NCBI RefSeq assembly: GCF_044704955.1
Contig: NC_091979.1
Location: 162,688,001 to 162,752,000, forward strand
Direction: 5' to 3'
DNA from: Pristiophorus japonicus
Lineage: Eukaryota
DNA: 64,000 nucleotides
Positions within the stretch are counted from its first letter, which is position 1. Every line of letters starts with the position of its first letter. Positions 20,565-21,480 of this stretch are shown here, piece by piece. Position numbers and translations under genes: made by a program. Under the pieces are notes generated by a model. The model was not told the origin of the DNA, ran no database searches, and saw only the letters and a program-made list of their open reading frames with translations.

Positions 20565-21480
20565 CTAGAAGTCCCTCATGCGCCTGAAAGATCCGACAGT
20601 TGAGTTGTAGCCGCCCCAGTCACTGAATCTCCTGTATTCACCGGGTCTCATGAAGTACTGTCGGCCTCTGTAGTTGGGTTGTTCATAGAAGTTCCAGTAA
20701 CCGTCCATCACATGGCAGGAGTGAATGTCACGGTAACGGAAACGATCGTAGACAGATGGACAGTCATCCATGAATTCCATCATCTGTCCTCCAAAGTCAG
20801 GCCTCTCGTAAATCTTCATTCTATAGTTTCCACCTCGGTACTGGAATAGAAATAAAATTATGTTTTTCATTAATCTATAAATCTTCAGTGTCTAGAAATA
20901 TATCTTTTCCTGGTGAGAAGGATTTAGATCAACAGACAGACAGTTCAATAACATGTATTTCCTAGTTTGAGAAATTATTAATTTACCAACCTCTATCTTT
21001 CCTCAGATCATCTTTTACGAGGATGCTAACTGAAATTACTAAATCCAGCAGCTGGAGTTGTTCAGCATGGTATTCATTTACTAGATCTCAATTGGTTTAA
21101 AACAAATTAACCAGCAAATTATAACTTACATGTGGGTAAGTGCGACATGACCTGATGTTGTCATTGAATCCCATCCAGCGTTGGTAGTCAGGATATTCTC
21201 CCCTGCTCAGAACATACTGGTATCCCATGTAATTGGGTTTTTCATACCCCACCCACCAGTCACTCTCCACACGGATGGAGTTACAGCGGCTGAAGTAAGG
21301 GGACAGGTCAGCACAGTCAGTATTGCACTCGTAGTGCCGACCCTGGAAGTTCCTGTCCTCGTAAAAGATGATCTGTGGAAAGATAGAGGTTTGTAAATTA
21401 ATATGTTATCAAACTAGGAGATACGAAATGAAGAATTCTAATACAATGTGTAATATCTGAGCTGTCCTTGCCTTTCCCAT
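20565..21480 (-). CDS. cryg: Gamma-crystallin (shark gamma-S1-like), copy 2; exons 21480-21472, 21372-21130, 20840-20565; 175 aa
   Basis: Open spliced frame [23 protein letters not shown]...[24 protein letters not shown]...[10 protein letters not shown]. Intron 1 is GC-AG (99 nt) and intron 2 is GT-AG (289 nt). Confidence 0.96.
20960..21023 (+). repeat. Inverted 64-bp copy of the intron1/exon2 junction inside intron 2 of gene 2
   Basis: The reverse complement matches 21356-21419 at 59/64 and 29846-29909 at 62/64 by manual alignment. Confidence 0.92.

Follow-up and report, generated by a model that had tools for sequence, protein, structure and literature searches.

Several classes of short duplication in which nearby DNA is copied to a new site have been described. 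Repair-mediated duplications were reported to be at least 50 bp long, with a donor within 5 kb, 2 to 9 nt of microhomology, and a deletion of 1 to 15 nt (PMC2671141). A four-point template-switch model was set out by Loytynoja and Goldman in 2017 (PMC5453318), and templated insertions assigned to MMBIR were put at about 100 germline events of at least 25 bp per human genome (PMC8421209). The templated insertions of Pol theta (TINS) span 3 to 30 bp, and their template lies no more than about 30 bp from the break (PMC7165422). Inverted repeats have also been connected with exon skipping. Inverted Alu pairs are reported to act in this way in TBXT (10.1101/2025.03.07.642063), a 13-kb inverted duplication in MANBA causes exon skipping in people and leaves no normal transcript (PMC6549551), and artificial stems reportedly needed more than 50 nt of perfect pairing for skipping in vivo (Solnick and Lee, as cited in PMC2275289). 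The time available for such folding depends on how far splicing trails the polymerase, which was reported as 75 to 300 nt in mammalian erythroid cells (Reimer, 10.1101/2020.02.11.944595) and as several kb in other mammalian work (Drexler, 10.1101/611020). The closest described gene cluster to the one considered here is that of the catshark gamma-crystallins, in which about 40 tandem, near-identical genes and some pseudogenes lie within about 1 Mb (PMC11979771).

The window analyzed here, 64,000 nt of Pristiophorus japonicus contig NC_091979.1, carries four intact three-exon genes on its minus strand, with exon 1 at 4219, 21480, 29970, and 49638 (genes 1 to 4). One Pfam Crystall domain is encoded by each of exons 2 and 3, and the solved structures closest to the gene product are mammalian gamma-crystallins. 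Three exons, a 9-nt first coding exon, a Crystall domain in each of exons 2 and 3, and an open frame identify these as gamma-crystallin genes; the gene 2 protein is presumably shark gamma-S1-like. When the gene 2 region was compared with its own genome (5.9 Gb), 62 matches were obtained, nearly all in about 1.5 Mb of one contig, and 37 loci of this cluster (L001 to L037) were examined.

Gene 2 shows no frameshift, stop, splice-site, or TATA damage. On the minus strand, a TATA box (21541..21547) precedes the coding part of exon 1 (21472..21480; Met-Gly-Lys) and a 99-nt GC-AG intron 1 (21373..21471), whose boundaries match spliced contigs of a related organism. Exon 2 (21130..21372; 243 nt, phase 0/0) encodes the whole N-terminal Crystall domain and is followed by a 289-nt GT-AG intron 2 (20841..21129). 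The last exon (20565..20840, to the stop codon) encodes the linker and the whole C-terminal Crystall domain, with an AATAAA at 20515. The GC donor of intron 1 (21470–21471 in gene 2), which matches U1 at 7 of 11 positions there, is present in all four window genes and in loci L001 to L020, and intron 1 starts with GC in 20 of the 27 loci in which exon 1 was located. A GC-AG intron 1 is fixed across this subfamily of highly expressed lens genes. Elsewhere in the window, a long repeat family occurs in many copies and in both orientations (46408–48677, 54437–58062, 7256–10848, 18442–20155, and 24099–25825), one of them inside intron 2 of gene 4; these copies are likely LINE remnants. The window also holds a 3-kb inverted pair with 68% identity (32998–36078 and 41162–44192) and two imperfect palindromes of about 110 to 120 nt (7041–7155 and 26583–26687).

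Intron 2 of gene 2 contains, 106 nt past its donor, a 64-nt inverted insert (20960..21023, minus strand) that is an antisense copy of the exon-2 acceptor of the same gene. The template arm (21356..21419, minus strand) joins the 3′-terminal 47 nt of intron 1, which include the branch region, pyrimidine tract, and AG, to the first 17 nt of exon 2. The insert pairs with this arm at 59 of 64 positions (mismatches at 21408, 21405, 21404, 21392, and 21376) and with the corresponding arm of gene 3 at 62 of 64. The full inverted repeat is slightly longer, with arms of 69 nt at 20955–21023 and 21356–21424, 91% identity, and 332 nt between them. All of the numbers in the original prediction, which had described the reverse-complement copy, its loop, and its greater closeness to gene 3, were reproduced, and the stretch replaced, given there as about 16 nt relative to gene 1, is exactly 16 nt long there and in every other paralog retaining this site. 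The repeat is beyond chance expectation: when the gene unit was shuffled 200 times, no inverted match exceeded 39.2 bits, and the best match in the actual sequence scored 98.7 bits. It is the sole inverted repeat of at least 25 nt in the window with separate arms inside 1 kb, and the RNA fold of the insert region has a z score of −8.8 (20 shuffles). The 21-mer across the junction occurs once in the 5.9-Gb genome, and scans of 29 and a further 8 loci found no inverted copy of the locus's own acceptor elsewhere in the cluster.

Short-read contigs from DNA run X1 bridge both junctions of the insert with no differences, and X3 contigs bridge one junction. Contig depth at the insert is 9.7 in X1 and 9.4 in X3, with neighbors at 7 to 17. 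Both runs derive from one sample, possibly the source of the assembly, so these data argue against assembly error but do not add a second animal. A genomic run from another species (X8; 88% likeness) has zero coverage at 20872–21027 and is hence uninformative on the insert. An assembly artefact, arising from a fold-back chimera in the reads, would be compatible with the presence of the insert in the runs of a single sample, which may be the assembly's own. We nevertheless regard this explanation as scarcely credible, given the exact bridging of both junctions at single-locus depth and the sequence of the insert itself, which departs from its template at five positions and includes a variant belonging to a distant sister locus; a chimera would show neither. 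Three clustered changes in intron 1 of gene 2, considered below, are absent from the listed X1 and X3 contigs, which drop rare variants, and the assembly is therefore the sole source for those changes.

The ancestral state of the insertion site is preserved in the cluster. The same flanks enclose only 16 nt in 12 paralogs (L002, L003, L005, L008, L009, L011, L013–L016, L018, and gene 4), and this empty site is also kept in L032; all of this evidence comes from paralogs and not from orthologs. At the downstream junction, the original flank and the flank of the template (21421–21424) have 4 nt of microhomology in common (20955..20958, minus strand), next to one mismatched base at 20959, and the other junction has no microhomology. 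Neither a poly(A) tail nor a target-site duplication was found at the insert, the copy crosses an intron–exon boundary, and its donor, 332 nt away, is within the 5 kb that characterizes repair-mediated duplication. The insert thus shows the marks of a repair-mediated or template-switch inverted duplication (a nearby reverse-complemented donor, an empty site with a small deletion, microhomology, and no sign of retroposition), and the combination of deletion, nearby donor, and 4-nt microhomology places it with the known duplications of this kind. The template-switch origin first proposed for the insert therefore fits the published classes and is supported. A typical Pol theta insertion was also considered and was rejected, as 64 nt copied from 332 nt away exceed the ranges given for TINS in the available part of that source (PMC7165422). 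The insert adds one more case to a frequent type of mutation, and the gene family that received it is redundant.

Other rearrangements were seen in the cluster. Intron 2 of L020 contains, about 94 to 155 nt in, a 62-nt stretch in direct orientation with 76% likeness to the last part of exon 2 and the adjoining donor, which could serve as a decoy donor, and in L031 a 102-nt inverted piece of exon 2 (L031:3896–3997) lies about 1.2 kb upstream of a decayed gene (2464–2700). In gene 2 itself a second indel near 20930–20940, about 20 nt beyond the insert, leaves the gene a net 25 nt shorter than L002; it may have arisen together with the insert or separately. A literature search, in which subscription journals were mostly uncovered, found no earlier account of such an insert or of exon-2 skipping in a gamma-crystallin.

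Comparison of the arms with the paralogs gave some indication of the later history of the locus. The insert has C at −20, a base found otherwise only in L002 among 19 aligned loci, and the gene 2 arm itself has the majority base at this position. L002, about 140 kb away, is the nearest sister of gene 2 in intron 2 and the 3′ UTR; the promoter, intron 1, and exon 2 of gene 2 are closest to L003, L006, and others, which makes the gene a mosaic of paralog lineages. From this pattern we infer that the 5′ half of gene 2 was probably exchanged with a paralog after the insertion. Such an exchange would mean that the insert is not recent and that the better match to gene 3 partly reflects mosaic history. 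The better match had been ascribed to the three clustered changes in gene 2; these do contribute, and the mosaic history would share the responsibility.

The three changes lie at −32, −33, and −36 from exon 2 (21404..21408, minus strand), in a stretch that varies in many paralogs, and had been read as a possible compensatory weakening of the hairpin. Over the intronic part of the arm (47 nt), gene 2 differs from the majority at 3 positions, the 18 insert-free loci L002 to L019 differ at a mean of 2.1, and 7 of these 18 have at least 3 differences. The remaining 52 nt of intron 1, which are not part of the arm, hold 3 differences in gene 2 as well. The predicted duplex energy is −96.7 kcal/mol with the gene 3 arm and −84.8 kcal/mol with the gene 2 arm, a weakening of 12%, and the changes, located 32 to 36 nt from the exon, fall outside the helix over the AG, so that runs of 11, 15, and 20 pairs remain over the branch region, tract, and AG. 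All five differences between the arms break pairs, and none is restored on the opposite side. Compensation thus found no support in the divergence of insert-free paralogs, in the equal change outside the arm, or in the energy and position of the remaining duplex, and the arm changes appear to be accounted for by drift. The possibility that the three changes were copied from the flank of the insert, where the same 7-mer occurs in antisense, was also rejected, since within 30 nt of the insert a match exists for 2 of the 27 possible triples, and across the gene unit for 5 of 27, which is not significant.

Partition-function folds of natural pre-mRNA stretches bore out, computationally, the hairpin that had been predicted over the branch region, pyrimidine tract, and AG. 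In gene 2 the probability of being unpaired is 0.01 for the branch region, 0.07 for the pyrimidine tract, and 0.00 for the AG, and opening of positions −20 to +3 is calculated to cost 40.0 kcal/mol, compared with 2.6 to 4.6 kcal/mol in all five paralogs folded. The exon-2 donor is about as open in gene 2 as in the paralogs. The modeled helix has uninterrupted runs of 11, 2, 11, 15, and 20 pairs, the longest being 20 bp, and at 10 °C its duplex energy falls to −123 kcal/mol and its opening cost rises. The folds thus support a stable helix across the acceptor. Judged as a splicing-regulatory structure, the element hides a splice signal in computation but lacks conservation with paired changes across paralogs, being present in 1 of 37 loci with 5 of 5 differences breaking pairs. 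The opening cost depends on transcript length beyond the AG (3 kcal/mol at 360 nt, 13.8 at 370 nt, and 40 at 400 nt), so the helix would form only once transcription has proceeded about 365 nt beyond the AG, and any effect on splicing would be a kinetic race. The reported distances of splicing behind the polymerase (75 to 300 nt, and several kb) fall on either side of this interval. The insert adds little in the way of cryptic sites: two weak donors, which match U1 at 6 to 7 of 11 positions and do not surpass other candidates in the intron, and a single weak acceptor AG, 121 nt before exon 3.

The reading that we favor, with a probability of about 0.5, is that the insert is a scar of repair or template switching with an unselected side effect, namely predicted leaky splicing of gene 2 alone. 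A DNA end in intron 2 would have copied 64 nt of the opposite strand 332 nt away and then rejoined, using the 4-nt homology at one junction; exchange with a paralog would later have overwritten part of the 5′ half of gene 2, and both arms would have drifted. In each transcript the acceptor would stay accessible over about the first 365 nt transcribed beyond the AG. If the spliceosome has not committed to a transcript by that point, a 64-bp helix (−85 kcal/mol) would zip up across the branch region, pyrimidine tract, and AG, and the outcome would be retention of intron 1 or in-frame skipping of exon 2; the remaining transcripts would be spliced normally. Our best estimate from the folds is accordingly a partial effect, and with about 37 loci the output of gamma-crystallin would fall by a few percent at the most, which would be near neutral. 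Because exon 2 comprises 243 nt between phase-0 introns and exon 3 holds a full domain, skipping would be in frame and would yield a 94-residue, single-domain crystallin of about 11 kDa, an outcome that the original prediction had missed. That the hairpin drives such skipping in a sizeable share of transcripts, making a natural half-crystallin, is unlikely in our estimation; if it does, a gene for a two-domain lens protein came to produce half-crystallin through one copying error, with neither a transposon nor a coding change involved. No joint of exon 1 to exon 3 was present among the 15 joints listed from spliced contigs of another organism (X5), which is not known to carry the insert.

The size of the splicing effect could be smaller or larger than this. 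It is possible, though we doubt it, that the same scar has no real effect, either because the spliceosome commits to the short intron 1 (99 nt), or removes it, ahead of transcription of the antisense arm or because proteins or helicases part the arms. An acceptor that is free for about 365 nt has longer than the 75 to 300 nt reported for erythroid splicing, the longest perfect run of 20 bp is short of the more than 50 nt given as necessary in vivo (PMC2275289), and the gene is intact. Splicing several kb behind the polymerase in other work argues the other way, as do a GC donor that is likely slow, with its 7 of 11 U1 matches, and a helix that sits on the acceptor itself instead of flanking it. 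A near-complete block, which would make gene 2 in effect a recent pseudogene with a reading frame maintained through paralog exchange, seems to us distinctly unlikely. The 40 kcal/mol opening cost, higher still in the cold, the loss of normal transcript reported for MANBA, the mosaic structure of gene 2, and the existence of another dead sister without an acceptor (L032) are all in its favor; however, the MANBA repeat is 13 kb and not 64 nt, and the frame, splice sites, and TATA box of gene 2 are undamaged although the arms have drifted at 5 of 64 positions. The protein sequence fits a normal output of gene 2, in line with a scar that has no real effect and against leaky splicing. No private amino-acid change was found in gene 2 relative to 27 paralogs in exon 2 and 14 in exon 3 (L012 was dropped as frameshifted and L030 was not anchored). 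This has a probability of 0.009 to 0.0004 if three to five changes in 111 neutral arm sites date the insert, and of 0.21 if the one private change of the insert alone counts. Changes at synonymous sites are few as well, a pattern expected from exon exchange, and the amino-acid test is therefore confounded; it weakly suggests that gene 2 still makes full-length protein.

Leaky splicing as an unselected side effect also has to be set against selection. The original prediction saw in the insert a candidate cis attenuator or ADAR substrate that tunes the dosage of gene 2 and was possibly softened by compensatory changes in intron 1. The predicted helix does take in all of the acceptor signals, the three changes do break pairs, and dosage is thought to be important in shark gamma-crystallin clusters according to the part of the catshark report available (PMC11979771). 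We consider a selected element of this kind very improbable, as it occurs in 1 of 37 loci, the duplex is weakened by just 12% and not at the AG, no pair is changed on both sides, and 7 of 18 insert-free paralogs are equally divergent in the arm (mean 2.1 vs. 3). The cluster moreover tolerates dead copies: at least 3 of 37 loci are dead (L012, L031, and L032), with exon 3 outside the fetched DNA for many others, so partial loss of one copy is likely near neutral and tuning of one copy is unlikely to have been selected. Seen once among about 37 loci, some of them dead, the insert thus gave no evidence of an evolved dosage attenuator or ADAR tuner. L012 is an otherwise near-identical paralog with a frameshift in exon 3, and L031 is a decayed crystallin gene that has lost its acceptor AG. 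L032 (1406–2499), another sister of gene 2, is a pseudogene: it keeps the empty site, lacks an acceptor AG, and has about 220 nt of inserted sequence in its exon 2.

Whatever its effect, gene 2 offers a natural experiment, in which a 64-bp helix would fall exactly on a 3′ splice site after a fixed delay of 350 nt. Near-identical, insert-free sisters expressed in the same cells serve as built-in controls, and a comparison with them would ask whether, in a cold-bodied vertebrate, commitment to an acceptor is faster than folding over a long range.

The cluster has the same layout as that of the catshark, with its roughly 40 near-identical tandem genes over about 1 Mb and its pseudogenes; an insert like that of gene 2 is absent from the portion of the catshark description available (PMC11979771). 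With TBXT and its Alu pairs (10.1101/2025.03.07.642063) and with MANBA (PMC6549551), the locus shares an intronic antisense arm that can loop out an exon. The gene 2 arm differs from both in being a 64-nt copy of an acceptor and not a transposon or a 13-kb segment, and the skipping demonstrated in those genes is here a prediction. As in template-switch and MMBIR events (PMC5453318 and PMC8421209), nearby DNA was reverse-complemented and an inverted repeat was probably made in one step, but the template lies 332 nt off, beyond the 100-bp limit of MMBSearch, and microhomology is found at one junction only. The resemblance extends to the duplications described in 2009 (PMC2671141), which likewise span at least 50 bp and have a close donor on the same chromosome, a small deletion, microhomology, and no poly(A) tail or target-site duplication; their captured donors include splice sites, exon edges, and one inverted exon copy within its own gene (ACSBG2). 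Relative to the cases in the accessible text of that report, the gene 2 insert has a deletion of 16 nt where theirs are 1 to 15 nt, is located in a unique intron where theirs are inside transposons, and covers the acceptor of its own pre-mRNA.
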